From positions 1 through 39,942 of the forward strand of contig JAKMGM010000113.1 in assembly GCA_022424925.1 (NCBI GenBank): 39,942 bases of DNA, written 5' to 3'. Positions 5,472-39,772 of this stretch are shown here, one piece after another. This stretch comes from Candidatus Poseidoniaceae archaeon (GTDB lineage: Archaea > Thermoplasmatota > Poseidoniia > Poseidoniales > Poseidoniaceae). Every line of letters begins with the position of its first letter. Within the stretch, counting starts at the first letter, position 1. The notes under the pieces were generated by a model that saw only the letters and a program-made list of their open reading frames with translations, was not told where the DNA came from and did not search any database. The position numbers and the translations under genes were made by a program.

Positions 5472-7229
5472 ATGGCCGAAAAAACACCTTCTGAAAACGA
5501 TGATGCTGATGAGGATTGGATGAAGTATGCCAATGCTGGTTTTGGAGAAACAGATTATTCGTTATGGGATGAGGAGAGTGCCGATCTAGAGCAACCCGTG
5601 AACGATGATGAATGGGACCAAGATTTCGAATCGCCAGACCAACTCAGTACGCACATGGAGGAAATCCCCCGTGCTCCATCTCCTGCAGGCCATAAACATC
5701 TGGTACGAATTGGAACATGTGACCACTGTCTCGGCCGATTGGGTGGAAAGAAACGATTTGAGCAGAGTATCGAAGAATCTGGGGTTGAAATCCGTGCAGT
5801 TGTTACTGAACGAGATTCGCACTTATCCAATGCACGCATAGACGAGCCTCTCTGTCCTTTTTGTGAAAACTTGTATGAAGAATCAGCGCTGCTCGCTGAC
5901 ATCATCTTCGATTCAATTTCGCCGTATGAACTCTCAAGATTGCAACTCGGAGCCCGTATTCCAAAGGACCAAATGGAAGAGGAAGAGGAAATGAGAAAAC
6001 GCTACGGAGCCGGCGGTTCCGATCCGCTCAAGAGTGGACTCGTGAAAGCGATTGCACATCACCTCAACACTCGACTTGAAGGCATTACTTTAGTCAATGA
6101 TAAACCCCAAGTCCTTGCGCTCATTGACGTGTTAACACTCACGGTCGAACTTGATATCCGTGCGCATTACCTTTACGGACGATACCTCAAACTCGAACGA
6201 GGCATTCCCCAAACTCGTTGGCCGTGTAGGGCATGCAAAGGCCGTGGATGCCAACGCTGCGAACAAACTGGCCTCCAATACAAGAAAAGCGTTCAAGATC
6301 TGATAGGTAATCCCTTACTCGAACTTTTTGATGCGAAAGAACACGCCTTCCATGGCATGGGTCGCGAAGATATCGATGTCCGTTGTATGGGCCGAGGCCG
6401 TCCGTTTGTCATCGAAATGAAAGAACCTAAAATTCGCTCTGTCGATACGGTGAAAGCGATGAACATCATCAATGAGGCAGCCGAAGGTAGCATACAAATC
6501 ACAGGCCTTCGTGATTCAAACAGAAGCGAGGTCGTCCGTGTTAAGGATACGCCTGCCGAAAAATCCTACACGATACGCTTCCGAATATTGCCACTGAGTG
6601 AAGCAGAAATGTCAGTGCTGACCGCACCTGTTGATTTGACACACGTCGATGTGCAGGAACGAGGCGGCAAAGGGAAAAAGAAGTCTTCGAAGAGAAAGCG
6701 TCGTGGCGACCGTAAAAATGACCACAAGAAGCCGCTTCCTTCGGTCATCGATGTGCCTGTGGGCCCCGATGAAGCAACATTAACGGCAATGAAGAAACTC
6801 GAACTTGTTGCACTTGCTGAAGAGATGAACCTCAAGAAGTCGGGTACGAAACCGCAAATCATTGAACGTATACTCTCGACAGGTCCACCTGCCCCCACAT
6901 ACCTGGACCTACCAGAAAACGAGGAAATCTTGGAAACCATCAAAGCACTTTCTGGCGTTAAATTAGCGCAACGAACCCCGGAACGCGTCGCTCACCGGAG
7001 AGCGGACCTTATTCGGCGCCGGACCGTATATGAAACGTCAAATCCACGCATTGAAACGATGGAAGACGGGGTACGCGAAGTCGAGTTCACCTTACGCTGC
7101 GAATCAGGGACGTATGTCAAAGAAACAGTCCATGGCGATGGAGGCCGAACACAGCCAAGTCTATCCACACTCATCAAAGCAAAATGCGAGGTTTTGTGGC
7201 TCGATGTCGGTGATATTCACGCAGATTGA
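5472..7229 (+). CDS. pus10: tRNA pseudouridine(54/55) synthase Pus10 with an inserted basic tract and SAP-like domain
   Basis: CDHCLGR..CPFC Zn site, YGRYLKLERGIPQTRW, catalytic GREDIDVR, QRTPERVAHRR and GTYVKE. Lies next to rpl21e. Confidence 0.95.
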   Translation: MAEKTPSENDDADEDWMKYANAGFGETDYSLWDEESADLEQPVNDDEWDQDFESPDQLSTHMEEIPRAPSPAGHKHLVRIGTCDHCLGRLGGKKRFEQSIEESGVEIRAVVTERDSHLSNARIDEPLCPFCENLYEESALLADIIFDSISPYELSRLQLGARIPKDQMEEEEEMRKRYGAGGSDPLKSGLVKAIAHHLNTRLEGITLVNDKPQVLALIDVLTLTVELDIRAHYLYGRYLKLERGIPQTRWPCRACKGRGCQRCEQTGLQYKKSVQDLIGNPLLELFDAKEHAFHGMGREDIDVRCMGRGRPFVIEMKEPKIRSVDTVKAMNIINEAAEGSIQITGLRDSNRSEVVRVKDTPAEKSYTIRFRILPLSEAEMSVLTAPVDLTHVDVQERGGKGKKKSSKRKRRGDRKNDHKKPLPSVIDVPVGPDEATLTAMKKLELVALAEEMNLKKSGTKPQIIERILSTGPPAPTYLDLPENEEILETIKALSGVKLAQRTPERVAHRRADLIRRRTVYETSNPRIETMEDGVREVEFTLRCESGTYVKETVHGDGGRTQPSLSTLIKAKCEVLWLDVGDIHAD

Positions 7230-7294
7230 ACCTTCATAACGAGTGTTTTGAGGATGTTTTTCTACATTCAGCCCCTCTTTCATCCGTCGCGGTG

Positions 7295-7302
7295 CTTATA
7301 TG
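7295..7302 (+). promoter_or_regulatory. TATA box for rpl21e-rpoF operon
   Basis: CTTATATG. Spacing seen elsewhere in the window predicts a TSS near G7324. SD GGAGG at 7360. Confidence 0.55.
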
Positions 7303-7323
7303 GGAAAGGTAGGTCGCCAAACT

Positions 7324-7354
7324 GCTCCGAAGATGCGTTACGCAGACACGGGGC
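7324..7354 (+). promoter_or_regulatory. Putative structured 5' leader of rpl21e
   Basis: GCTCCG/CGGGGC stem, AAGA/GACA internal loop and TGCG-TTA-CGCA apical hairpin. Confidence 0.45.
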
Positions 7355-7372
7355 TTACAGGAGGCGACAAAC

Positions 7373-7663
7373 ATGAAGCGATCCAAAGGACTGAGAGTCG
7401 GTACAAGAAGCGTCCTGCGTCGACGCAAGTCGGAACGTAGCCGTGTAAACATCAGCCGCGTTATGCACGACTATCAAGAAGGCGACCGAGTGGCTATTGT
7501 CCTTGATGGCGGTCAACAAATGGGCATGCCCCACCGCCGTTTCAACGGTCGAACAGGATTCATCCAGAAGCGCCAAGGTGTCGCTTGGGTTGTTGCAGTC
7601 AAAGACGGTAACATGCCAAAGACAGTCATCGCTCGCCCAGAGCATTTGCGCCCACTCGAATGA
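7373..7663 (+). CDS. rpl21e: 50S ribosomal protein L21e
   Basis: MKRSKGLR..TR, GDRVAI, GMPHRRFNGRTG and RPEHLRP. Confidence 0.97.
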   Translation: MKRSKGLRVGTRSVLRRRKSERSRVNISRVMHDYQEGDRVAIVLDGGQQMGMPHRRFNGRTGFIQKRQGVAWVVAVKDGNMPKTVIARPEHLRPLE

Positions 7664-7672
7664 GGAATTACC

Positions 7673-8035
7673 ATGACTGAAGAAGAGCGATTTGTTGACT
7701 TTGCTACCGTGCGAACAATGCTTTTGGAAGCTGAAAAGCGCCGAAAGAACCTCACCTATGAGCAAAAAGCTGCATTGCAGCACGCTGAATGGGCCGCTAG
7801 CGATGCACGTAACGGATTCAAGACAGACCCCGAAGTCTTTCAACAATTGAAAGATGCTCTTTGTGAAGTAAAAACACTTTCATCCCTGCCGCATCTGGCT
7901 GCAAAGTTGGCTGAATTGATGCCGTTGTACCCCAATGATGTCAAGGCGGTATTGGCCTCCGAACGAAAGACTATTCCAGACGACGAAATCAACTCTGTGT
8001 TGGAAATTGTTCGTCAACACATCGGTTTCGAGTGA
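7673..8035 (+). CDS. rpoF: RNA polymerase subunit F (Rpo4)
   Basis: LTYEQKAALQHA and AAKLAELMP motifs. Sits at the conserved position after rpl21e. Confidence 0.92.
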   Translation: MTEEERFVDFATVRTMLLEAEKRRKNLTYEQKAALQHAEWAASDARNGFKTDPEVFQQLKDALCEVKTLSSLPHLAAKLAELMPLYPNDVKAVLASERKTIPDDEINSVLEIVRQHIGFE

Positions 8036-8060
8036 AACTTATCCCGCAAGGTGATTGGAC

Positions 8061-8852
8061 ATGACCGGTGGACGAAAAGACCGTAACATCAAGTTAGGTG
8101 CTGGAAAGAAAAAGCCATCACCATCCACTGGCTCTACATCATGGTCGAGACCAGCTGAAGGACGTAAAGAAGTCGCTCCCGCCAAACCCCGGCAATCTCG
8201 GCCTCAACCTCAGCGCGATAACAACCGCCGGAACGATAACCGACGTGGCAATCAAAACCGTCAAGGCGGACGCCGTGGAAACCGAACATCGGGTCCACAG
8301 ACCAAATCTCCGCTTATGGAAGAGGATTGGGCTCGAGTCATCGATCATGACCAAACCCGAAACGAAATCGTTGCCGTCACTGAAGGAAAGATGCTCCTCT
8401 GCCGCCTCAAACCGAAACCAAACATAACGCCCTTACTCACCACCGCTCGCGTGTACATTGGTACCGATGAGAACCTTCGGGAGCACGTCGACCAAGTTCT
8501 CGGCATGACGAACATCGGCAGAGTTGCGAATCACGTGAAGGCCGACCTGCCGTTGGTGATTCAAATCTTCGTTGAAGAAAATGAGCAGCATTTCATTAGC
8601 GCCTTTTTCAATGTGGCCGGCAACATGTCCCTCAAACAACACGCCTTTGAATTACTTTCAGGCGTTGGTAACAAGAAGGCCATACAGATGGTTGAAGCAC
8701 GTGGCTCTTCAGGCTTCGAATCTTTGGAAGCCCTCAACGAAGCATGTAACATTGATGCCGGTGAACTGCTCGCAAAGCGTTTCCTTGCCGAATTGGATGA
8801 CAGGGAAATGCAACCGCGGCTTCTCGACCTGCTTTTGCCGGTGAAGGCATGA
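8061..8852 (+). CDS. DUF655 family putative RNA-binding protein with basic N-terminal extension
   Basis: EEDWARVID, FFNVAG..SLKQHAFELLSGVGNKK (HhH) and FESLEAL. Lies between rpoF and ksgA. Confidence 0.85.
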   Translation: MTGGRKDRNIKLGAGKKKPSPSTGSTSWSRPAEGRKEVAPAKPRQSRPQPQRDNNRRNDNRRGNQNRQGGRRGNRTSGPQTKSPLMEEDWARVIDHDQTRNEIVAVTEGKMLLCRLKPKPNITPLLTTARVYIGTDENLREHVDQVLGMTNIGRVANHVKADLPLVIQIFVEENEQHFISAFFNVAGNMSLKQHAFELLSGVGNKKAIQMVEARGSSGFESLEALNEACNIDAGELLAKRFLAELDDREMQPRLLDLLLPVKA

Positions 8853-9715
8853 GAGGCGCACGTTGGCTCACCGACAGTTTGCGAGATAAACAGCCGTTTG
8901 ACAAGTCCTTAGGGCAGCATTTTCTCGTCAGTGATGAATGCATTGCACGGGCTGTTGAACTTGGTAATGTTTCCAAACACGATCATGTTCTAGAAATTGG
9001 ACCGGGACCCGGCGTTCTTACCGAGGTGTTGCTGTCAACCGGCTGCACACTCACCGCCATTGAAATCGATGGCGGTGCTGTCGAGCATCTTTTAGGCGCA
9101 TTCGCTCCAGAAATTGAGACAGAGCAGTTTCATCTTATCGAAGGCGATGCGTTGCAGGTGCGTTGGCCTGAAAACATCACCAAGATTGTTGCCAATATTC
9201 CGTATCAAATTTCGTCGCCCCTCATTGATGTGTTAACTCGCTATCATCGCAATCCTCGTACATCTGCATTAGAGCAGATTGTTCTACTTGTCCAAGAAGA
9301 ATTTGCTGAACGGCTGGTTATGGAATACGAAAGCGATGTGGGGTCACTGGGAATGACCGTTTGTCTTGATTGGGAATGCGAAATCGAAGATAAGGTTCCA
9401 CCGCATTACTTCAGCCCAATGCCTAAAGTCAATTCCTGTTATGTTACCATGGAGCCGCACGGTGAAGAATGGCCGTGCGATGTCCGTTTGGTTCGTCAAA
9501 TGATTCATTTGGCGTTTGATCAACGAAGGAAGAAACTCCGTTCGACTTTGAAATCTGTTCCGCGACGAATTGGTCGGGTCAATGGTTGGCATGCTGGGCG
9601 TTGGAAGCAGGCCTATGCCTCGCATCTTGATGACGAGCGAATGGAGATGCGGCCCGAAGAACTCGAAATAGAGGATTGGATTGAACTGTGTGAATCGTTC
9701 ACTCGCGTTGCCTAA
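8849..9715 (+). CDS. ksgA: 16S rRNA adenine dimethyltransferase KsgA/RsmA/Dim1
   Basis: KSLGQHFL, VLEIGPGPGVLT, VANIPYQISSP and FDQRRKKLR. ATGA overlap with DUF655. Confidence 0.95.
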   Translation: MRGARWLTDSLRDKQPFDKSLGQHFLVSDECIARAVELGNVSKHDHVLEIGPGPGVLTEVLLSTGCTLTAIEIDGGAVEHLLGAFAPEIETEQFHLIEGDALQVRWPENITKIVANIPYQISSPLIDVLTRYHRNPRTSALEQIVLLVQEEFAERLVMEYESDVGSLGMTVCLDWECEIEDKVPPHYFSPMPKVNSCYVTMEPHGEEWPCDVRLVRQMIHLAFDQRRKKLRSTLKSVPRRIGRVNGWHAGRWKQAYASHLDDERMEMRPEELEIEDWIELCESFTRVA

Positions 9716-14189: not shown

Positions 14190-14981
14190 TCAAGCGAACG
14201 GGTCAATGTTGACAATCTGGTCAACATCAATGCGTTTGTACCCGCGCTCACGCGCATTTTCAGCCGCTTTTGAGAGCATTGCTCTCATCCAGCCCAACGA
14301 CATCAGTGTTTGCATTTTGCTTAGCGATTCGATGAAATGAACCGGGTTTCCACCGAACTGTGTATTGCTGCGGATATCTGATTCCATTTGCTCGACAACC
14401 ATGTAATATGTTTCAATCAATTCTTCGACAGCGTCTTTGGTTACCGGCATCTTCGCATGGGTTTTTGCCAGCGCTAAAAGAGATGACTCGGTGAGAATTC
14501 CACCGCCTTGGCTGATGACGAACTCTTCGGTCTGTCCCGCTTCAGGTATCGTTTCGTCTTCATCCGAATCGCTACCAAGTCCCATGCCGGCAACGGCAAT
14601 CTCAAGGTGACGTGGCTTGATTGTCGCAACTCGGTCTTTCTCCGCAGCGATTTCCGCATGATAAACGATTTTCGACAGATAGGTCTCAACTTGTGCTATA
14701 CCTGCTTGGACAGCAGCAGAACCTACCGATTCGACATCAGCAATTTCATCAATCATCAGTTCTCGTGTACGGTTGTAGTTTAGGCGAGTTCGGTACGGGT
14801 CGTCAAGGGTTTTACGCTCCGGGTCTTGTGCTAGTGTAGCTGCTTCCATCTCTGGAACGAAGCGGCGTATTTCGGCACATACCAGTTCCACGAGTTGCTC
14901 TTTAACAGCGCCAGCGAGCCTCATCTCAGTGAAGTTTGAGGCAACTGCTCCAATGTGACCGGTCGAGTAAGGCTTTGCCAT
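14190..14981 (-). CDS. Multi-histone-fold protein (three folds)
   Basis: L1/L2-like motifs MRLAG..ERKTLD, SVGSAA..DRVATIKPRHL and MPVTKDA..RGYKRIDVDQI. Confidence 0.75.
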   Translation of the reverse strand: MAKPYSTGHIGAVASNFTEMRLAGAVKEQLVELVCAEIRRFVPEMEAATLAQDPERKTLDDPYRTRLNYNRTRELMIDEIADVESVGSAAVQAGIAQVETYLSKIVYHAEIAAEKDRVATIKPRHLEIAVAGMGLGSDSDEDETIPEAGQTEEFVISQGGGILTESSLLALAKTHAKMPVTKDAVEELIETYYMVVEQMESDIRSNTQFGGNPVHFIESLSKMQTLMSLGWMRAMLSKAAENARERGYKRIDVDQIVNIDPFA

Positions 14982-22128: not shown

Positions 22129-25100
22129 TCAGTCATCGTTCTTTTTCCGGCTCACCGTACGACGCTTCGGCGCTTTACGGGGGGCTGCTCGGCGACCTAC
22201 AGCTCGCTTCTTCTTGACAGGTTTCTCTTCTTCGACTTCTTCTTCCTCGTCATCATCGTAAGCGCCCCAGTCAATACCGTCATCGTCTTCTTCATCGTCT
22301 TCGGGGATTTCAGGAACATCCTTCTTTCGGCGGGTTTTACGGGCAATGACGTTCACGGCGAACGGATCTTCATCTTCGACGGGTTCTGCCTCTTTTTCCG
22401 GCTCTGCGGCTTTTTCTTCGGTCTTTTCGCTGGTATCAGTGACTGCACCCATATCCAAATCTTGAGATGTGCCTATGAATTCAGACATCCAATCCTCGTC
22501 TTCTTCTTCCTCATCGCCGGCCTTCTTTTTCTTTGGACCGCTCATACTGGTGCTGATTACAAGCAGCATGATGATAAGCGAGAACACGAATATGCCTGAA
22601 AGAACCCATACCAGGATATACGGTGGGTCGGTAAAAGATGGTTCAACAATAATGGCTTCTGGCGGGTCTTTTAGAGATTCAACATAGTTACATGAGGTCG
22701 TACCGTCGAGTCGGTTTCGACATTCATCAACAACAAAGATAACACTGGCCGAGCGTTCATTCCCCGCAGAATCAACGGAACGCACAAACACTGCGTGTTG
22801 ACCGGGGAGGAAATTACCCGCAGAAAATTCGAGGTCAAGAACCAGTGAACTGTTATCTCCAAGCAGGTTGGTAACTTCGGTCGCCTCAGTCCAAGGCGTG
22901 GATATCGACTGGCCAGTCCCGTAGTTGTACGTGAACTTGTATTGGAACGAATCGATTCGTACATCGTCTTCAGCTCCCGCAAGCAATTGGATTTTGTTGC
23001 CGTAAAGGTACTTCGATTCACCATCTGAAAACGATGAGGGTGAATAGATGACAACAGTTGGTGGAACAGCATCAACTGCTCTGTCTGTCCATTGTTGAGA
23101 GGCCTTGTTGTTCGCTTTGTCCTCCATTTGAACTTCAAAGACCATGTCTCCTGCAATCGTTGCGGCGGTTACGAAGAAATCCAACTCATACACGGGCCCT
23201 CTGTCGGGATTACCAGCGTTTTCTTGGATGAGCGCCATCTCTCGCTCGCCACCGGATAAGTCACCGCCACCGACGGTCGTGATGTTGATCATTGGATTAA
23301 CGTCGAGGTATTCGTCAAATTCAATTTGAACCTTGTAGTCGCCAGCAATGAGGGAAGGACTGGTAAATGCTTCATTGTCTTCATTGATGAGAACCATTGA
23401 TGCCACTGGGGCTTTGGTATCTTCTGTCACTTTAATGGCATTTGAATTGAGGCCCGAATAGGTTTCAGGATCGGTATTGCCCCATTTGTCGGTTACCATC
23501 ACTGCATACCAGACGTCTCTGTCCACATCTTTCGGAATATCCAGTTGGCGGAAAAAGGTGTTTTCCTCGGATGTACCGGCTTGAATGTTGTCCAAAACAA
23601 GTTCCCAACCGTCTTCCGTTACCGAACTGATATCGCCTTCGTCTTCGCCGAAGGGCTCACCGTAATGGCGCCAAACTTGGTACATTTCATCGCTTTCGTC
23701 GCTGTTAAACCATTCAAGAGTAACCTTTTCGAGGTACCCAATGGATAGGACCTCCTTCATATTAACTCGGAGCGGTGCAGTGGTATCTTCTTCATTGCCT
23801 TCAGCAATTTGGAAGTAGTTTTGATTCAATCTCTTGTCCATGTATGTTCCAGAGAGGTGACCGTAGAGTGCTTCAGTGGTTACGAAATAGTAGGGGCGTG
23901 AAGCCAGTAGTCCGTCTGTAAGTTCGACATCAAAGAAGCCGACACCATCGCTGACTGAACCAAGCCATTGCAGCGAACCGTTGAATGTCGCCCATTCACC
24001 ACCGGTTACTTTCCAGCCAGCCTTGTAGACGTGGTATTGCTCTCCTTCCACACCCAATTGGTCGTTCCACGAAACCCTCGTTGTTTTGTTTCCGATAAAT
24101 TCGGCGTATACGTTGGTTGGTTCTGCAATCCACGGGCTAAACGCATCTTCGAGAACTGCATCCGAGCATGAATTGAAGGAGACATTGGTATCCATCACAC
24201 CGTACAAATCCACGGTTGCCACACAATAGTAGGCCATGCCCAGTCGTCCGGTAGGCACCTCGTATTCGAACGATTCAACACCTTCGGAAATCGTCCCTAA
24301 CAACTGAACATCGGAACGAAGAACGCTTGAAAATGCAGTGCCTGACATGTAGATTCGGTAGGATTCACCTACTTCGCCGTTCACATCAGTCCAAACTACG
24401 GTTGTTGTGCCGCCACCATCGGTTGGGTCTGCCGTGAATTGTGCATACATCGAACTCACCTGTTCAGGTGGCATGTTGTCTTCCATCACGGGAGAAGTCA
24501 TGGCGTTGTTTGACAGGAACCGAACATCTTGATAATCGACGCCAATCTCATTCCAGTTGGGTAGGTTGTAGGTCACAGAATAGTACGCATCTCGGTCGGT
24601 GTTTTGGGGCACATCAATGACAATCGAGGAAGTTCCGGCAGGTAACGTTGCAACAGGTGCTTCGGATAGCAGCATGTTGGGCCCGTTCGAACGGGTCACC
24701 GGGTACGATGTTCGGTACAGAAGAACCTCATAGGCATCGTCACCGGTTTCAGGTAAAATTGGGAAGATGTCGTTGTAGTTGATCCACTGGATTGTCGATT
24801 GGCTGGTGTCTGGGTTGAACGAGCCAAAGATGTTGTACGGAGTACGAATCGCTGTTGTCTGTTCGAGAATCGGCGTCGAAATCACTGAAGCGTTTTCATC
24901 CAAATCAAGCAAAGGGGTTCCATCGCCAAGCGTTGTTGTAACAGCGTAGTAGAACGATTCATTCACGCCTGGAGGGACCAAGAATGACGCTGAGTGTTGT
25001 GCAACAGTGCCGTTGATGCCTCGACATCTGAACGCAACGTTCTGAACTTCCTCTGACGAACACGCAATGATTCCCGTCTCGAATGGCGATAGGTCGCCGA

Positions 25101-25380
25101 TTGATGTAGCGTTGATGGGCTCACTTGAACGGTATACGTCGTACGTTGCGCTAAAGAGGCCTTGTAATACCGACCCGTCAATATCGATATTCCGCCAAGT
25201 GATGGTTGTTGTCTCGGTTGCTGGGTCGAAGACTGCGTTGATGTCTTGGGCTTGCAAATTGTTTGGATTACCGATATCTTCCGCCGAAACGTTGGCGAGA
25301 GGAAGTAGAGCCAAAAGCATGCACAACACAAGGAAAATTGCTTTTCTCTTGCCTTCTTTACCGAGCAGTTCGACCGTCAT
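22129..25380 (-). CDS. Large secreted, C-terminally anchored surface protein with FN3/Ig-like repeats
   Basis: Signal peptide, about 5 W..Y.(V/I)Y..YY.V.T repeats, DTKAP/DAVPP Ig-like starts, one TM helix, then an acidic and basic tail. Confidence 0.85.
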   Translation of the reverse strand: MTVELLGKEGKRKAIFLVLCMLLALLPLANVSAEDIGNPNNLQAQDINAVFDPATETTTITWRNIDIDGSVLQGLFSATYDVYRSSEPINATSIGDLSPFETGIIACSSEEVQNVAFRCRGINGTVAQHSASFLVPPGVNESFYYAVTTTLGDGTPLLDLDENASVISTPILEQTTAIRTPYNIFGSFNPDTSQSTIQWINYNDIFPILPETGDDAYEVLLYRTSYPVTRSNGPNMLLSEAPVATLPAGTSSIVIDVPQNTDRDAYYSVTYNLPNWNEIGVDYQDVRFLSNNAMTSPVMEDNMPPEQVSSMYAQFTADPTDGGGTTTVVWTDVNGEVGESYRIYMSGTAFSSVLRSDVQLLGTISEGVESFEYEVPTGRLGMAYYCVATVDLYGVMDTNVSFNSCSDAVLEDAFSPWIAEPTNVYAEFIGNKTTRVSWNDQLGVEGEQYHVYKAGWKVTGGEWATFNGSLQWLGSVSDGVGFFDVELTDGLLASRPYYFVTTEALYGHLSGTYMDKRLNQNYFQIAEGNEEDTTAPLRVNMKEVLSIGYLEKVTLEWFNSDESDEMYQVWRHYGEPFGEDEGDISSVTEDGWELVLDNIQAGTSEENTFFRQLDIPKDVDRDVWYAVMVTDKWGNTDPETYSGLNSNAIKVTEDTKAPVASMVLINEDNEAFTSPSLIAGDYKVQIEFDEYLDVNPMINITTVGGGDLSGGEREMALIQENAGNPDRGPVYELDFFVTAATIAGDMVFEVQMEDKANNKASQQWTDRAVDAVPPTVVIYSPSSFSDGESKYLYGNKIQLLAGAEDDVRIDSFQYKFTYNYGTGQSISTPWTEATEVTNLLGDNSSLVLDLEFSAGNFLPGQHAVFVRSVDSAGNERSASVIFVVDECRNRLDGTTSCNYVESLKDPPEAIIVEPSFTDPPYILVWVLSGIFVFSLIIMLLVISTSMSGPKKKKAGDEEEEDEDWMSEFIGTSQDLDMGAVTDTSEKTEEKAAEPEKEAEPVEDEDPFAVNVIARKTRRKKDVPEIPEDDEEDDDGIDWGAYDDDEEEEVEEEKPVKKKRAVGRRAAPRKAPKRRTVSRKKNDD

Positions 25381-25389
25381 CAATTCGCT

Positions 25390-26788: not shown

Positions 26789-26920
26789 AATGAACGCTAT
26801 GGTGTTCAACACATAAACAGAAAGGAAGAACGGCAAGGAAAGCGCAGTTTTCTATTGATGCGCGTAGATACTTGGAGGCAAAGGCATCATAGGGCAACAC
26901 CCATAGCGACCGCTGTTACC

Positions 26921-27670
26921 ATGTTCGGAATGAATGACCCGTCACAAACACTGCTCCAGTTGGAGCGGTACATGGCAGAAGGTCGTATGGAAATGTCTGA
27001 AGTGATGGCTATCCAGTTCACCGATATGTTTCTCGCCCAGAAAAAGCGTGATTCAAATGCACAAAGTATGCTGGTCAAGGGCTTACGAATTTTATGTGAT
27101 GTTTTTCTTGCAAGGGGAAAAGCGAAGCGCGGAATTTCGACGGTGAAGATCCTTCATCGGGAGAGGAAAAAACTCGTTCAAATATTAACCAAGGGGGCGC
27201 CTCATCTCCTTTCAAAGATGACCCCAGCATCTGAGGATTACCGCCGAGCAGGGAATATTTTCGCCTTAGCTGGTAAACAATCATCGGCGATCAAAGCCTT
27301 CCGCCAATGTGAGAAACTATCGCCGAACCATCTGGCATCGGCTTTGGAGGCGTGTCAGTTGTTTCCGGATAACAAAAAACTCATTCACCTCTTTGTCAAG
27401 AATGCGACGCAAGCAGGGCCGGTCGTCATGTACGAGGGTGTGTTTTATCTGCAGCCTGAAACATCGCCGATGGTGAAAATTGACAATGTCATTCGCGTTC
27501 TTCAGTCCGCTCTTGAGCAAAGCCTTGGACCGTTGGATGCCTGCTCAGCACAACTCAAGCGGATTACCGATGAGCGTCAAGCCATTGAACGCGGCGAGGC
27601 TGCGGCGAATGCCCGTTTGCAAGCGGCGATGGATCTTCTCAAGCCACAGCACGACTATTACGAGTACTGA
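26921..27670 (+). CDS. Hypothetical helical protein with a TPR-like motif
   Basis: DYRRAGNIFALAGKQSSAIKAFRQCEKLSPNH is TPR-like. Start is uncertain (26921 or 26930). Confidence 0.7.
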   Translation: MFGMNDPSQTLLQLERYMAEGRMEMSEVMAIQFTDMFLAQKKRDSNAQSMLVKGLRILCDVFLARGKAKRGISTVKILHRERKKLVQILTKGAPHLLSKMTPASEDYRRAGNIFALAGKQSSAIKAFRQCEKLSPNHLASALEACQLFPDNKKLIHLFVKNATQAGPVVMYEGVFYLQPETSPMVKIDNVIRVLQSALEQSLGPLDACSAQLKRITDERQAIERGEAAANARLQAAMDLLKPQHDYYEY

Positions 27671-32975: not shown

Positions 32976-33033
32976 GGAGGTCCGTGGGGCGGTTCATTCT
33001 TGAAGGGGATGCATGTGGGTCGGTGTGATTGAC

Positions 33034-34260
33034 ATGACAGGTACGCCGGTTACGATGAAAGACGGAAAACTCGAAGTTCCAGACGATCCGATTATCCACT
33101 ACATCGAGGGTGACGGAATTGGTATCGATATCACTCCAGTAATGATGAAAGTCGTTGATGCAGCAGTCGAACACGCTTACGGCGGTAAGAAAGGCATCGT
33201 TTGGTCTGAAGTTCTCGCCGGAGAGAAAGCGTTCAATGCAACCGGAGAGTGGTTACCTCAAGCCACTCTCGACGCCATGCGAACTGGACTTGTCTCAATC
33301 AAAGGCCCGCTCACGACACCTGTTGGTGGTGGGATTCGCTCGCTGAACGTGGCACTGCGTCAAAAACTCGACCTGTATGCATGTGTTCGACCCGTTCGCT
33401 GGTATGACGGTACCCCTTCGCCGGTAAAAACTCCGGGAGATGTGGACATGGTTATTTTCCGAGAGAACAGTGAGGATGTCTACGCTGGAATCGAATGGGA
33501 AGCGGGCAGCGACGGTGTCAAGAAACTCATCGATTTCTTACAGAACGAGATGGGTGTCGACAAGATTCGATTCCCCGACACTTCGGGAATCGGAATTAAA
33601 CCAATTTCACAAGAAGGAACTGCACGTATTGTTCGTGCCGCATACCAATACGCAATTGATAACGACAAAGAAAGCGTTACACTTGTTCACAAAGGGAACA
33701 TCATGAAGTTCACCGAAGGAGGATTTCGAGATTGGGGCTACGCCCTGGCCAAGGAAGAATTTGGTGCCGTAGAACTCGATGGTGGACCTTGGTGCACCTT
33801 TGAAAATCCAAACACAGGCAAGACCATACTGGTCAAGGATGTGATTGCTGATGCCATGCTTCAACAAATCATCACCCGTCCAGCCGAATATTCGGTATTG
33901 ACGACGATGAACCTTAATGGCGATTATATCTCAGACGCATTGGCGGCACAAGTAGGTGGTATTGGAATAGCACCAGGCGCCAACATCAATTACGATACCG
34001 GTATTTCGATTTTCGAGGCTACGCACGGAACCGCACCCAAATACACGGGACAAGACAAGGTCAACCCAGGTTCAATGATTCTCTCTGCAGAGATGATGCT
34101 ACGGCACATGGGCTGGGCAGAGGCTGCAGACCTCATTGTCAAAGGCATGGAAGGAGCAATTTCGGCCAAGACCGTAACCTACGACTTTGAGCGTTTGATG
34201 GATGATGCAACGTTGCTCTCGTGCAGTGCCTTTGGCGATGCAATGATTCATCACATGTGA
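33034..34260 (+). CDS. icd: NADP-dependent isocitrate dehydrogenase
   Basis: [47 protein letters not shown] and VTYDFER. Confidence 0.97.
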
Positions 34261-34263
34261 AGC

Positions 34264-37200
34264 TCACTTGAGCCATGCGTTGAGTGAACGGCTGTTTTTG
34301 GCGATTCCAAAACCAAACTGTTCTTCAAATGCACGTGCGACAAGCGTGAAATCACCGTCTCTGGTTGCGACTAAAACCGTTCCGAGGTCTTGGAGGGATT
34401 GGGTTGCAAGTTGAGAAGCAATTTGCATTATGGTTCGGTCCGGTGCCTCTGGGTATACATCCAGGTTGTTCAGAACCGTTCGGGCAGGTTCGCCTCGAGT
34501 ACGCTTCATTGCAGTGATTTCCTCATAGATTTCAGTCGAATCAAGGAGGAACTGATCAATCGCTTCCTTGTTTTCAGGTGATTCGGCTTCTTTTTCCAAA
34601 TCGAGGTTAAGTGGCCGCCAGGTGTTGTAATCCTTCACGACTCCATCAACCAATTGATTCAGAGTTTTTGCACTGAAAATACTGTCGAGCAGTTCAGGCG
34701 ATACGAGGAAGTCATCAAAGCGGGATTTGAGTTTTTGAATTCCTGAAGCAATTCCACGTAATTCTTTTTCAACAATACTCGGTAACCACAGATGCAATTT
34801 CTTTTCTTTTGATTTACTGAGCAGGATTTTGTGGAAACTACCTTGTCCGCGCACATCCAAACTCGCTTCACTGACCAATTCCAATTTCTCGGCAATTCGG
34901 TCGGTAAGTGCGTCGACCAAAATATTGGTATCAACGATGACCAGTGGTGCGAGTGAGAGATTCCGGAGGTATCGACGCGATGCGTTCGGGATGTTTGCTT
35001 TGTTGACTGAGAACAGCGATTTTTCCGCTTGTTGAAGGCTACGGATTTCAGTATCGTTGAACAGAGGACTGTTTTGAGCGCGTTCAAGGAACATGAGTCC
35101 GTCAACTGCTCGAACCTTCGCAGCCTCACTCGCGAGTGTGTACACTTCATCGGTCGAGGGAGAGCCGCTTTGCATCAACTGGTTGAACCGCATGTCAAAT
35201 GTGTTCTTTTGCCGACGGCGGTTCTTGTGGAGTGAATTGGTTGCTGCAGTGACCCGTCCACAGAAGGGGTCGGTGGGGAGTGGTCGCGGGTGTTCCAACG
35301 GGTAGGTTTTGAGCATGTCGAGATCATCTTCTGCGTGGTAGACTCGCATCACCTCAACCATTTCGCCATCTTCGTTTTCTTCAGTGACCATGCGGGTTCG
35401 TTTCACGAAATCTTTGAGCATTTTGGTCGCCGAGTTGGTGTCTTTGGTGCGAGCCGTAAACGAAACACGCAGATAGAGTTGGAAGCGGTGCGTGATTGCA
35501 CTCTTGAGGGCAGGTTGTGCATCAAGTAACTCGACGGCTTCTCGCCATTGTTCTGCAAATGCCAAGTGAATCAGGGCTTTACGGTAGAGCGTTAGCGAGT
35601 GTTCGTAATCGAACTCTTCATGGTCGCCAGCCTTTCGGTAATCTCTAGCAGCGTTCAATTCTTCGCCTTGAGATGCATAGACTGCTGCCCTCGCCAAGGT
35701 ATGCCAAGGTGAAAGAGCGTCATTGTTCTGGTACCATCGGACCAATGAAGGCAGGCCGATATCGTGCTCCAGAACCAAATGTCGAACACTGTGGATCATC
35801 CCTGTGGGAACTGAGGAATTGCTCAGCAATGTATTGAGCGTATCGATGTTCTCCGGGTCAGCATTTCCGTGCTGCAGCATCAGGCCAACATAATTGAGGC
35901 GCAGTGTTGCTATTACGGCGTTGAACAGCACCCGTTCCATCACTGTAAGTTCTGCCGATGCGACACTTTCCTCAAGGTTTGCAAGATGCGTCGAGGAGGC
36001 AATGCCGCTGCCACCGTCTCGTAATGCTTGGCGAATAGGGCTGAATGCGCGCAAGCCTTGGCGGTCGAGAACAGAAGTGAGACGCTCGTCAACGATGTTT
36101 TCGCCTTCGAACAGCATCAGCAATGCTTCAGAGGTCGAGGAGAAGGATTCGGGTGCATCGACGCTGTGAATTTCAGACAGCGCAGTTCGTCGGGCTTTGC
36201 GTACTTGTGACCATAGTTCGTAATCACTCCCAGCATCGAGGAGGTGAGAAACAAGAAGTGTCTCGTAGGGATGTGACATTGAAATGAGTTCGTCTGAGGT
36301 AATAATTTTGGCCAACAAGGGTAGTTCCATACTTTGTGTGTGGATATCGATGAGGAGGGGTAAAACGGATTCGCGCTCTTCAGTTGCTCCGGGGTTGAGG
36401 TTGCGAGCAGCAGCAGCACGGATTTCAAGCGATAGGGAGTCCATTTGAATCAAGGCGACTAAGGCTCCGTCATCCAGTGCGGGGATTTGTTCAAGCAACC
36501 ATAGATCCAACTCGTCGTTCGTAAGTGACGCAAGCAAGGGTGCAATTCGAGAAAGTTCAGTGTTATGGTCTAGCTTTAGACTGGTGAGCAGTCTCACCGT
36601 TTCCTCTTCGTTACCTTCACTGTGAAGTGCATTCAATCTCCACCACATGACCTTTTCAATTTGAGCAGCGTTGGTCGTGTTCTCACGCAGGAGTTCTAGA
36701 CCTTCTGTCAATTGTTTTGAGGTTAATGTTGAAGCTTCATCTGGTGCATGTTCCCACGCCAGCAATTGACGTGCAGCAGCAAGTGAATGCTCACCTTCTG
36801 CCGTTCGCGACGCTTCCCAATCGGTGACTTTTCCTTGGGTGAGTGCGTGGTAATCACTCAACTGCTCGGCGAGTTTTTCATCGACAGATTCGAGTGTTTT
36901 CAAGGAGGCAGACGGGTCTTGTCCAGATGCCAACGACAGCAAGACGCTCAACGCTGAAGCGTGTTTTTTCATTTTCAAAAGTACCTCAGCGGGTTGGATT
37001 TGCCGTCCTGCTGCCAGTTGGGACGAAACAGTGCGCAAAGCGACTTGTGATTCAGCATCGATAACGGATGGAGAAATAGAGTCAATAGCGAGAATCAATT
37101 CTTCAGCATTTGATGGATTGATGAAGGCTGAATCGAGTTTCACTTTCTTGCCCGTTTTTGCTTTGGATACTTTGGCTTTCGGAAAAGCAGCAAATTGACC

Positions 37201-37665
37201 AAGAAGTGCGGTTCGTTGCGCTAAATCCTGCCATACCGGATGAACTCCCTTTTCCAAGCATGTTTCACGGAGTGACGTTTCTGTTGTTTCCCATTCTTCT
37301 TCCCAATCGTCTTTGTTGAGTAATTTGTGAACCATCAAAACCGCCAGTCGGAACGCCGGCGAATTGTCAGATGGTATGAGCATCTCTTGAGGCGAAGGCA
37401 AGAGATCCATAGGGCCAGTTGCACCTCTGCCACCTCTGCGACTTCGTCCACGTCCGCCTGCTTGTCGACGTCGAGGCGCGGTATCTTCGTCATCATCTGC
37501 AGCAGGTAGTTCAGTTTCAGCCAAAGCCAGTAACAGCAAAGGTCGCCACGGCTTTTCCATCAATTGCCAGTCAGGTGTCTTCACGACAATCGCTTGACGG
37601 CGAGCCTTCGTAACGTTCGACTTGAACGCCACTTCGAGGCAGTTTGCGATGTATGTCTCTTGCAA
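34264..37665 (-). CDS. Large alpha-helical/TPR protein with C-terminal PIN nuclease domain
   Basis: VIVDTNIL, IVEKEL, PDRTI and VATRDGDF acidic tetrad, TPR-like repeats and an N-terminal RGG tract. TTG start after a G-rich SD. Confidence 0.85.
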   Translation of the reverse strand: MQETYIANCLEVAFKSNVTKARRQAIVVKTPDWQLMEKPWRPLLLLALAETELPAADDDEDTAPRRRQAGGRGRSRRGGRGATGPMDLLPSPQEMLIPSDNSPAFRLAVLMVHKLLNKDDWEEEWETTETSLRETCLEKGVHPVWQDLAQRTALLGQFAAFPKAKVSKAKTGKKVKLDSAFINPSNAEELILAIDSISPSVIDAESQVALRTVSSQLAAGRQIQPAEVLLKMKKHASALSVLLSLASGQDPSASLKTLESVDEKLAEQLSDYHALTQGKVTDWEASRTAEGEHSLAAARQLLAWEHAPDEASTLTSKQLTEGLELLRENTTNAAQIEKVMWWRLNALHSEGNEEETVRLLTSLKLDHNTELSRIAPLLASLTNDELDLWLLEQIPALDDGALVALIQMDSLSLEIRAAAARNLNPGATEERESVLPLLIDIHTQSMELPLLAKIITSDELISMSHPYETLLVSHLLDAGSDYELWSQVRKARRTALSEIHSVDAPESFSSTSEALLMLFEGENIVDERLTSVLDRQGLRAFSPIRQALRDGGSGIASSTHLANLEESVASAELTVMERVLFNAVIATLRLNYVGLMLQHGNADPENIDTLNTLLSNSSVPTGMIHSVRHLVLEHDIGLPSLVRWYQNNDALSPWHTLARAAVYASQGEELNAARDYRKAGDHEEFDYEHSLTLYRKALIHLAFAEQWREAVELLDAQPALKSAITHRFQLYLRVSFTARTKDTNSATKMLKDFVKRTRMVTEENEDGEMVEVMRVYHAEDDLDMLKTYPLEHPRPLPTDPFCGRVTAATNSLHKNRRRQKNTFDMRFNQLMQSGSPSTDEVYTLASEAAKVRAVDGLMFLERAQNSPLFNDTEIRSLQQAEKSLFSVNKANIPNASRRYLRNLSLAPLVIVDTNILVDALTDRIAEKLELVSEASLDVRGQGSFHKILLSKSKEKKLHLWLPSIVEKELRGIASGIQKLKSRFDDFLVSPELLDSIFSAKTLNQLVDGVVKDYNTWRPLNLDLEKEAESPENKEAIDQFLLDSTEIYEEITAMKRTRGEPARTVLNNLDVYPEAPDRTIMQIASQLATQSLQDLGTVLVATRDGDFTLVARAFEEQFGFGIAKNSRSLNAWLK

Positions 37666-37808
37666 AACAGCCCCCCCTACCCCTTTGCCTCAACCTATCC
37701 TCCTTCAATCCACCGGAACAGCCTTCATGGATTCAAATCAACGGTTGATGATAAATTGTCTGCGAACATCAATGAACAAAGACAACTTGCACGCGACGAG
37801 GCAGTTCA

Positions 37809-38276
37809 ATGGATGTCGTACGAGTCGCCATTTTACTGCTTCACCCCCTTCTTGCTTCGCTGCTTTTGGTTTGGATTTGGTGGCAATATTCGTGGCGCAA
37901 GAAAAGTTACGAATTGAAAGGTGATGAGCGAAAATCAGCGCTGTCAAGCCACGAGAAAAACGGCAACCGCCTGGTATGGGCCACTTTCTTTGTGATTTGC
38001 ATCGCCTTTCTCAGCCGCGCCTTCGTTGGTTGGCGAGAGGGAGAGGCTGTACTGACATCACTCATACCCGGCAGTCTTCACGGATTCATGGGACCTGTTG
38101 GTTTTGTGCTGCTGTTGGTGTTGGCTCGAATGGGGCGACAAGCACGCAATGCTCGCAAGAACGGTGAGTCGTTCAAACACATCGCATTGCGTCATGGAAG
38201 AGCAGCTGACTTGATTGTCGTGCTTGTTTTTCTGCATGCCTTCTTAGGATTCTTGTACATCTTTGCCGTTGTGTGA
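37809..38276 (+). CDS. DUF4079-like membrane protein with His-bearing helices
   Basis: About 4 TM helices with HP, HEKNG, SLHG, RHGR and LHAFLG (cytochrome b561-like His pattern). Confidence 0.7.
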   Translation: MDVVRVAILLLHPLLASLLLVWIWWQYSWRKKSYELKGDERKSALSSHEKNGNRLVWATFFVICIAFLSRAFVGWREGEAVLTSLIPGSLHGFMGPVGFVLLLVLARMGRQARNARKNGESFKHIALRHGRAADLIVVLVFLHAFLGFLYIFAVV

Positions 38277-39275
38277 TGCGTGAATTCGCAGCGTTTGTTC
38301 TCGATTTTTCCACGTCTCAATCCACTTCTCGAGGTTTGCCTCAATACCGGGTGGTTGAATCCTGCATCCGCATGCATTTGCGTGACCTCCACCGGTCGGA
38401 TCAAACATCGTGGCAAGTCGAGAAAGGTCGTATTTTCCTTGTCCGTTCTTAAGAAACGAATTGGCGTAAAAACTTGCAGAGAGCGCTGGGCGTTCGGGTG
38501 TTTCGATAGAACCATCCGCATAGCCGTGAATGATGCAGCACGCATCCGCATTGTCACCCGCCCAAGCGGTGACAAGGTAGCCGTTTGAACGAACTCCTTT
38601 TTCATCCATTCGGCATACTGCAAGGCGGTCGATAATTTCGGTATGCTTCTCAACTACCGCCTGCGCCGCCTCTCGCTCGTCACGCGCTCGGGCGATGTGG
38701 GGTACGATTTTTTGGTCGCTCAATACCTCAGCCAGCGTCGCTCCTTGCGAAAACAACAGCAACACATGATGCATGTGTTCAGTTTCCCTCAGTGAGAGCG
38801 AGCGAGCGAGTTGCAACACCGGACCGTCTTCAATAAAGTCCTCTCGCCGAATCTGGCCAGAATCGAGTGCGTCAACGATTGGCATGATTTCTTCTAAGTG
38901 TCGCAGGTCGATGAATGGACTGAGCACATCAAAGGCGAGACGTGCTGCTGATGGGGTTGCTTCCCAATGACATGTGCCTCCAGCCGATACGAATGCCTGC
39001 TCCTCTTGCGGGTTTGGTCGATTTGTTTGGTGGTGGTCAAGGTACCATCCACAGTCGGGATGAAACGGCAAGTCGACCATTGCTGTTGTACGGTCGATGA
39101 GTTCATCCATTGCCCCCGAGCGAACCAATGCTGCGTGGGCAAAATGCACCTCTGCTTCCGGGTTTGCAGCCTTCAGGACTGCAGCTGCACACAAACCATC
39201 GAGGTCGGAATCTGCAATGATTCTTCGAAAGTTGGGAAGACCGGCTTCCTCCAGCGTTGAACGTGCAGAGCCCAT
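38244..39275 (-). CDS. DHH/DHHA1 family phosphoesterase
   Basis: DSDLDG, VDLP, LDHH, PSAAR and GGGHANACG. ATG 39275 has TTCTTG 29 nt upstream. Confidence 0.9.
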   Translation of the reverse strand: MGSARSTLEEAGLPNFRRIIADSDLDGLCAAAVLKAANPEAEVHFAHAALVRSGAMDELIDRTTAMVDLPFHPDCGWYLDHHQTNRPNPQEEQAFVSAGGTCHWEATPSAARLAFDVLSPFIDLRHLEEIMPIVDALDSGQIRREDFIEDGPVLQLARSLSLRETEHMHHVLLLFSQGATLAEVLSDQKIVPHIARARDEREAAQAVVEKHTEIIDRLAVCRMDEKGVRSNGYLVTAWAGDNADACCIIHGYADGSIETPERPALSASFYANSFLKNGQGKYDLSRLATMFDPTGGGHANACGCRIQPPGIEANLEKWIETWKNREQTLRIHASHNGKDVQES

Positions 39276-39361
39276 AGGGTGTGCGTATCTACGCCGCTCA
39301 AGAAGGTTTTTGGAAGCCAAATCGCCAAAATAAACATGACCTATTGCTATGTCGAGTGGAC

Positions 39362-39772
39362 ATGGAGACTTCATGCGGCATTGTTTTGGTGAATTTCGGA
39401 ACCGTGTTGTTGCTGCAATACCCTCAGGGGCATTGGGATTTTCCGAAAGGTCACGTTGAGGATACCGATGATGACCATCACGCAACTGCACGCAGAGAAC
39501 TCAACGAAGAAACTGGAATTTCAGAAATTGATTTCGTTGCGGATTTCGTTGAACGCAGTGAATACTCCTATCGACACAAAGGCAAAAAACGCACCAAGCA
39601 AGTGTACTGGTACTTGGCAGAAACTGAACGCATCACGGTTTCCCTTTCGCATGAACATCGAGGCCACATGTGGTTGGATTGGGAGCAGGCGATGGAGCAG
39701 TTATCCCATGAAGAAACCCAACGCGTTCTTGAACAAGCCCACAAGCACATGGTTTCGCTTGGTAAAGACTGA
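39362..39772 (+). CDS. Nudix hydrolase, asymmetric Ap4A hydrolase-like
   Basis: SCGIV..LLLQYPQGHWDFPKGHVE..TARRELNEETGI..LSHEH. Confidence 0.9.
   Translation: METSCGIVLVNFGTVLLLQYPQGHWDFPKGHVEDTDDDHHATARRELNEETGISEIDFVADFVERSEYSYRHKGKKRTKQVYWYLAETERITVSLSHEHRGHMWLDWEQAMEQLSHEETQRVLEQAHKHMVSLGKD

Follow-up and report, generated by a model that had tools for sequence, protein, structure and literature searches.

A helical scaffold protein with a predicted C-terminal VapC-like PIN domain in the archaeal order Poseidoniales

Contig JAKMGM010000113.1 (GenBank assembly GCA_022424925.1), from a Candidatus Poseidoniaceae archaeon of the order Poseidoniales (Thermoplasmatota), marine archaea of high abundance, encodes a large protein that raises the question of what a PIN-type nuclease domain, carried at the end of a long helical scaffold, may do in an archaeon. 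We analyzed positions 1 to 39,942 of this contig as one stretch, hereafter the window. The gene (34264..37665, minus strand; hereafter PIN-scaffold gene) was confirmed in the window as an open reading frame (ORF) of 1133 codons with a TTG start, and all motifs quoted in an initial annotation, made from the DNA letters only, are found in its translation. That annotation had proposed a scaffolded ribonuclease of either housekeeping or defence: a scaffolded PIN domain without antitoxin is indeed what we find, and ribonuclease activity is what it would be expected to have. No match to the whole protein was obtained in Pfam at E 0.01 or in NCBIfam. A protein search returned 205 relatives, those with names being hypothetical proteins mostly of Ca. 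Poseidoniales or Poseidoniaceae, and the gene occurs in 181 of 201 Poseidoniales genomes.

The C-terminal part (residues 906-1133; 34264..34950, minus strand), for which a PIN domain with retained acidic positions had been suggested, is predicted to adopt a VapC-like fold. Modelled alone with AlphaFold2, it reached a predicted local distance difference test score (pLDDT) of 88 and a predicted template modelling score (pTM) of 0.85. When this model was searched with VIA against 48,161 chains, the best match was VapC2 of R. felis (3zvk; Z 10.6, root-mean-square deviation (rmsd) 2.9, 134 residues aligned), with VapC11 of M. tuberculosis (6a7v, Z 10.2) and VapC15 (4chg, Z 9.7) also matched, all three at an rmsd of ~3 Å over 132-134 residues. 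The top 14 rows were VapC-type PIN domains or close to them; lower matches included Nmd4 (8rdd, Z 8.3), a human Nob1-containing structure (6g18, 8.0), SMG6 (2dok, 7.1), HARP (7f3e, 6.0) and SMG5 (5.2). Foldseek gave the same ranking (probability 0.97-0.99, E ~0.06). Among 42 diverse homologue rows, sub-threshold Pfam matches to the PIN clan were obtained for PIN_12 in 13, PIN in 12, PIN_4 in 6 and PIN_3 in 6.

Five acidic residues make up the putative active site, all encoded on the minus strand: D912 (34930-34932), E968 (34762-34764), D1076 (34438-34440), D1103 (34357-34359) and D1105 (34351-34353). Their D-E-D-DxD pattern agrees with site A of VapC15, given as D4, E42, D96, D114 and D116 in PMC5499597, residue equivalence being set by motif order. 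In a 65-row homologue alignment spanning 25-86% identity, the acidic site stays nearly invariant: D912, T913, N914, E1073, D1076, D1103, D1105, F1106, R897 and R1062 are kept in every row, and E968 in 64 of 65. Judged from its sequence, the active site thus appears intact, with ribonuclease activity as the expected function. Between E968 and D1076 lies an insert of approximately 100 residues (975-1072; 34450..34743, minus strand), which is predicted to be helical with a hairpin, carries the conserved K1054, R1062 and P1072 with E1073 adjoining, and is a candidate substrate-recognition element.

The AlphaFold2 model of the whole protein, built on the same 65-row alignment, has a mean pLDDT of 83.3 and a pTM of 0.63. 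Residues 85-900 are all helical in it save for one beta-hairpin (755-777), the PIN strands begin at 906, and the scaffold makes up 80% of the chain. The ~850 residues of helical repeats with TPR-like units put forward in the initial annotation are therefore borne out as helices, but are TPR-like at ~610-815 only and solenoid-like in shape rather than in sequence, as hhalign detected no internal sequence repeats (best probability 4.3%). The N-terminal helical region (residues 1-165; 37171..37665, minus strand) holds conserved basic residues (R23, R41, K114, R133) and an invariant G140, and includes a disordered loop (residues 57-83, pLDDT <50; 37417..37497, minus strand), acidic and then Arg-rich, with R76, R77 and R80 conserved. 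This loop had been described as an RGG tract; its Arg-rich character is conserved (4-10 Arg in every one of the 42 diverse rows), yet only one RGG is present here and mostly zero or one in the homologues. It is a candidate RNA-binding or autoinhibitory segment. The all-helical, solenoid-like region that comes next (residues 170-610; 35836..37158, minus strand) is the least conserved part and found no specific fold match in the whole-model searches, which returned generic solenoids only (TM at most 0.18). The TPR-like region (residues ~610-815; 35221..35838, minus strand) is well conserved, with invariant W644, A710, F728, Y788, L796, P797, G803 and R804 and a protruding acidic beta-hairpin (755-777); low-rmsd TPR-like matches were found only here (VIA: 4lct, Z 9.2, rmsd 4.3; 7msn, Z 7.9, rmsd 2.9).

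Distribution, inheritance and locus

The PIN-scaffold gene, found as one match or as split pieces and mostly in single copy, is present in 56 of the 61 genomes that are at least 90% complete, in 21 of 24 genera, and in 181 of 185 genomes once two genera, g19 and g12, are set aside; a third genus, g9, is represented by a single genome (85% complete) without a match. For comparison, a housekeeping beta-CASP gene used as control was found in 164 of 201 genomes at a stricter cut-off. Outside the order we found no sign of the gene: a stricter first look with the full profile matched 90 of 401 genomes of the phylum, all Poseidoniales, and a profile of the PIN domain, positive in 58 of 63 Poseidoniales genomes, found nothing in 238 other Thermoplasmatota. 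A further search, which had no positive control, gave no match in the 41 genomes taken from the sister order. Among 1.84 billion representatives there were 272 matches, the best 150 of which are either complete proteins of no more than 1169 aa or fragments, and a PIN-profile search for distant homologues gave 82 matches, seemingly pieces of the same family. The window's own genome holds no paralogue. We rejected a viral origin, as no relative was found on viral contigs and the best BFVD match had E 0.01 and TM 0.42.

The gene is inherited vertically within the order. In a FastTree phylogeny of 42 rows (family f2 not included, two long branches meeting, and no separate species tree to compare), a single branch separates each of the 11 genera with several rows from the remainder, and one change suffices for the family label. 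It is also under purifying selection: the ratio of nonsynonymous to synonymous substitution rates (dN/dS) ranges from 0.033 to 0.046 across those within-genus pairs whose dS is <0.7 (9 of 67), and from 0.033 to 0.082 over all computable values.

The locus is fixed as well. Upstream lies a divergent DUF4079-like gene (37809..38276, plus strand; E 0.007, below the cut-off), syntenic in 26 of 27 loci and retained when the PIN-scaffold gene is absent, then a DHH-type phosphoesterase (38244..39260, minus strand; start uncertain) in 22 loci and a NUDIX hydrolase (39281..39772, plus strand) in 18; isocitrate dehydrogenase (icd; 33013..34260, plus strand), the convergent downstream neighbour whose stop codon lies 3 nt from that of the PIN-scaffold gene, is found in 18, some of the loci being short-flanked. 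The window copy of the DHH-type gene has no Pfam match, and its homologue at locus L034 matches PggH (7d62, E 6e-10). No small co-directional partner gene is conserved beside the PIN-scaffold gene across the loci examined, in line with the initial statement that no antitoxin-sized gene adjoins it. Where the gene is missing, its usual flanks join in three of four loci (genomes G043, G035 and G002), 42-48 nt apart; in gene-lacking G019 the upstream neighbour sits in a different context. Two observations concern the neighbours themselves. The DHH-type phosphoesterase and the NUDIX hydrolase adjoin across the order even without the PIN-scaffold gene, and so form a conserved nucleotide-housekeeping pair; and a ~780-aa gene adjoins the DUF4079-like gene in six Poseidoniaceae loci (L042, L043, L044, L046, L048, L049) of several genera, in two orientations.

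The TTG start of the PIN-scaffold gene is preceded, 5 nt upstream, by a Shine-Dalgarno-like run of seven G (37671-37677, minus strand) and by a TTGAA motif (37704-37708, minus strand). Read by eye, many of 42 loci show TTGAA or TTGATGTA ~35-45 nt before the start and then a G-rich Shine-Dalgarno-like run; the motif may be a promoter element of Marine Group II. At the aligned start or beside it, again by eye, 23 of the 42 loci have TTG, CTG, GTG or ATA, 14 have ATG and 5 are unclear; CTG and ATA stand at the aligned start itself in several homologue loci. The G+C content of the gene (~50%) is similar to that of the remainder of the window. Three RNA runs did not cover the gene and give no evidence either way on its expression.

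Proposed function and its alternatives

We favour, with evenly balanced confidence, the reading that the protein is a VapC-like endoribonuclease that has been domesticated and, directed by the scaffold, works in RNA turnover or quality control. Its near-universal presence, vertical inheritance and purifying behaviour at a metabolic locus fit a housekeeping nuclease, which agrees with the phyletic test proposed at the outset (universal for housekeeping, patchy for defence), and RNA as substrate would fit the basic residues that are conserved in the PIN insert, the TPR-like region and the N-terminus. A toxin-type PIN domain would have been fused to a solenoid once, in the ancestor of Poseidoniales. 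D912, E968, D1076, D1103 and D1105 would coordinate Mg or Mn, which is the role of the five residues of site A in VapC15, and the basic PIN insert (K1054, R1062, R1111, R897) together with the Arg-rich loop would hold structured RNA, be it rRNA, tRNA or ribosome-bound mRNA. The TPR-like groove may bind a conserved protein partner that limits when the nuclease cuts, standing in for a separate antitoxin, while the frequent non-ATG starts might keep the protein level low.

Several points weigh against this endoribonuclease reading. The nearest folds are those of toxins, and the best studied prokaryotic proteins with TPR and PIN are described as defensive (PMC8195603; bioRxiv 10.1101/2024.11.07.622273). 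The protein drifts faster than most of its neighbours: between families it is 26-31% identical, compared with 28-43% for the DUF4079-like protein, 37-45% for the DHH-type enzyme, 42-58% for the NUDIX hydrolase and 82-87% for icd. Moreover, the gene is missing from genus g19 (0 of 14 and 0 of 31 genomes) and from genus g12 (0 of 2), and because the flanking genes are joined there, it is not essential; we conclude that it is useful but dispensable. Nor does it fill a gap left by a known enzyme. Five genomes were tested, of which three have the PIN-scaffold gene and two lack it. We found in them a Nob1-like PIN protein (5/5), PIN_9 (4/5), the exosome (5/5), an aCPSF1-sized beta-CASP protein (5/5), RNase P RNA (5/5) and Rpp29 (5/5), and therefore rejected a replacement of Nob1, Utp24-like PIN_9, exosome, aCPSF1 or RNase P. 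PIN_5 (PF08745) had no match on the PIN-scaffold gene and only a weak one on the Nob1-like ORF. Co-loss with a second beta-CASP nuclease was likewise rejected, since g19 keeps the beta-CASP control gene in 12 of 14 genomes. As an aside on the exosome, all five genomes have, in addition to the Rrp41/Rrp42-like genes that lie next to each other, a third member of the RNase PH family (G000:C60:1205-1594; also G003, G023, G002 and G035).

A more elaborate version of the housekeeping proposal, which we consider quite unlikely, is that a toxin-type VapC nuclease was domesticated in the Marine Group II ancestor and became a one-chain, TPR-gated enzyme of RNA surveillance, which cleaves faulty or ribosome-bound RNA once its scaffold has docked on a conserved partner. 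Archaea would then have invented the design of SMG6 independently, and in a lineage for which a search of 61 Poseidoniales genomes at E 1e-15 detected no aRNase J (TIGR00649). As a functional clue, however, this absence is weak: Thermoplasmatales likewise lack aRNase J according to PMC7144898, and g19 and g12 lack both aRNase J and the PIN-scaffold gene.

It is possible, though on balance somewhat unlikely, that the protein is instead a single-gene defence or dormancy effector, whose solenoid senses a viral protein or stress and frees an autoinhibited PIN domain, so that tRNA or rRNA is cut and translation stops, and which became fixed as core immunity; in such a protein the acidic site might be blocked by the Arg-rich loop. 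Besides the VapC-like fold and the two genera without the gene, this would account for the divergence of the protein, the fastest of the locus together with the DUF4079-like one, and since no canonical VapC was found in the five genomes, the PIN domain could be the only toxin-type one of the order. Its layout of ~1100 aa with TPR and a terminal PIN is moreover that of the TPR-GreA/B-C-PIN (TGP) conflict proteins, of which one, Agp, is reported to be antiphage. Yet the gene is not patchy, shows no sign of transfer between genera and keeps to one fixed, non-defence locus, with a gene-wide dN/dS of 0.03-0.05. No variable effector is fused to it in the best 150 of the 272 matches, all full-length or shorter pieces, the model has no GreA/B-C domain, and a PADLOC search of 37 rows gave no match below E 0.008. 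The TGP family PF20698 matched the PIN-scaffold gene in none of the five genomes at E up to 10; weak leads from the ESM Atlas to PF20698 clusters scored 0.77-0.78, which is below noise level where scores <0.9 count as leads only.

An action on DNA or DNA-RNA hybrids, such as repair or replication intermediates, with the solenoid docking the PIN domain to a replication or repair complex, appears decidedly improbable. DNA nucleases do occur in the PIN-like superfamily (PMC5499597), and the long insert could act as a substrate arch; still, the fold matches the VapC group, whose characterized members cut RNA according to the same source, no FEN-type chain was among the 50 VIA rows, and none of the conserved direct neighbours is a repair gene. 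We find it very improbable that the protein is mainly a structural scaffold with a PIN domain that binds RNA or metal without catalysis: the scaffold does dominate the chain, and inactive PIN domains such as that of SMG5 exist (PMC4132714), but 64-65 of the 65 rows retain each of the five acidic residues, against a remainder that drifts to 25% identity. Finally, there is a next to negligible chance that the protein is truly homologous to SMG5/SMG6, or their functional ancestor among archaea, and serves in translation-coupled mRNA surveillance. A helical region does precede a terminal PIN domain, and PIN domains related to nonsense-mediated decay (NMD) are among the fold matches (Nmd4, SMG6), but VapC leads by more than 3 Z units, profiles A2, A4 and A5, searched up to E 10, match none of the SMG5/6 chains, the gene is confined to one Thermoplasmatota order, and the N-terminus has no long low-complexity stretch.

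Other features of the window

The window also encodes a 263-aa protein (14190-14981, minus strand) with a weak histone-fold match (PF00125, E 1e-4, below the cut-off), while the usual archaeal histones are shorter; a 271-aa helical protein (26855-27670, plus strand) with a weak TPR_2 match (E 0.003); and the large subunit of Exonuclease VII (PF02601; 11487-12812, plus strand), whose gene is known chiefly in bacteria. A 1084-aa acidic protein (22129-25383, minus strand), likely secreted and membrane-anchored, has a weak Ig-like match and a Lys/Arg-rich tail, and the genes for Pus10 (SAP-domain match), an RNA polymerase Rpb4-like protein, DUF655 and RsmA/KsgA stand in a single run (5472-9715, plus strand).

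Comparison with known systems

Although VapC toxins are the closest folds, they are ~130 aa long and only 14-16% identical to the PIN domain described here, which belongs to a protein of 1133 aa found at full length across the order, and they differ from it in that this domain carries a 100-residue insert, has no antitoxin gene and is part of a core, vertically inherited gene. The adjacent, co-directional antitoxin of VapBC modules has no counterpart, the upstream gene being divergent in 26 of 27 loci and kept without the PIN-scaffold gene.

In overall layout, the TGP proteins of prokaryotic conflict systems (Pfam PF20698; Kaur 2021, PMC8195603), such as the 1094-aa Agp of E. coli (bioRxiv 10.1101/2024.11.07.622273), come close, as they are prokaryotic, ~1100 aa in length, encoded by a stand-alone gene and have a TPR region before a terminal PIN domain; other bacterial TPR and PIN proteins of ~1100 aa appear in Matelska Table S1 (PMC5499597). 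The claim that a TPR scaffold with a terminal PIN is specifically the layout of SMG5/6 can hence not be upheld. The PIN-scaffold protein is nevertheless not a TGP member: it has no GreA/B-C domain, residues 610-905 being modelled as helices and one two-stranded hairpin, no GreA family is among its listed Pfam matches, and its N-terminus and length are constant where TGP proteins have a variable N-terminal effector; TGP genes are sporadic, which this gene is not. Across 301 genomes, PF20698 gave only 3 matches, all in ORFs of 158-206 aa. The best Pfam lead is DUF4935 or PIN_12 (PF16289; 16.7 bits against a cut-off of 32, E 0.01, whole model aligned), which shares a long helical insert after strand 2 and monocistronic genes (PMC5499597), but DUF4935 proteins are ~350 aa long with an N-terminal PIN and an alpha/beta C-terminal region, whereas here the PIN domain is C-terminal to 900 helical residues.

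SMG6 and SMG5 of the EST1 family likewise combine a helical TPR-type region with a C-terminal PIN domain (PMC4132714). SMG6, however, has a long low-complexity N-terminus with motifs that bind the exon junction complex, where only residues 57-83 are disordered here. Profile searches up to E 10 matched no SMG5 or SMG6 chain of the PDB, with PIN_4 below threshold only, and the fold of the PIN domain resembles VapC (Z 10.6) more than it does SMG6 (7.1) or SMG5 (5.2), so that we rejected homology to SMG6. The SMG5/6/7 helical domains, in EST1 proteins a 14-3-3-like domain plus a helical-hairpin domain, were not listed in the whole-model fold searches, an absence that does not exclude the fold. The parallel is architectural only, as had been stated initially, with no sign of kinship to eukaryotic SMG6, and implies nothing on the origin of eukaryotic NMD. 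Protein-only RNase P enzymes (PRORP/HARP) also join a helical RNA-binding part or insert to a PIN-like nuclease, but the five genomes have RNase P RNA and Rpp29.

A literature search, which did not cover subscription journals, found no description of the family and nothing under 'PIN domain' with 'Poseidoniales'; none of the 11 'marine group II' rows in part of Matelska Table S1 (PMC5499597) has a PIN at ~900-1130, and 12 of the 13 supplementary files of Kaur (PMC8195603) mention neither 'Poseidon' nor 'Marine Group II'. The protein thus represents a new lineage-specific, order-restricted and previously undescribed PIN family rather than a new kind of system. With it, a large signature gene of the order annotated as hypothetical receives an assignment to a nuclease fold, with catalytic residues that can be put to the test. 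Were it to serve in housekeeping, a toxin fold would have turned into core machinery; were it defensive, it would be an unusually stable immune gene, kept vertically; and the two genera that lack it offer a natural comparison for identifying its partner.

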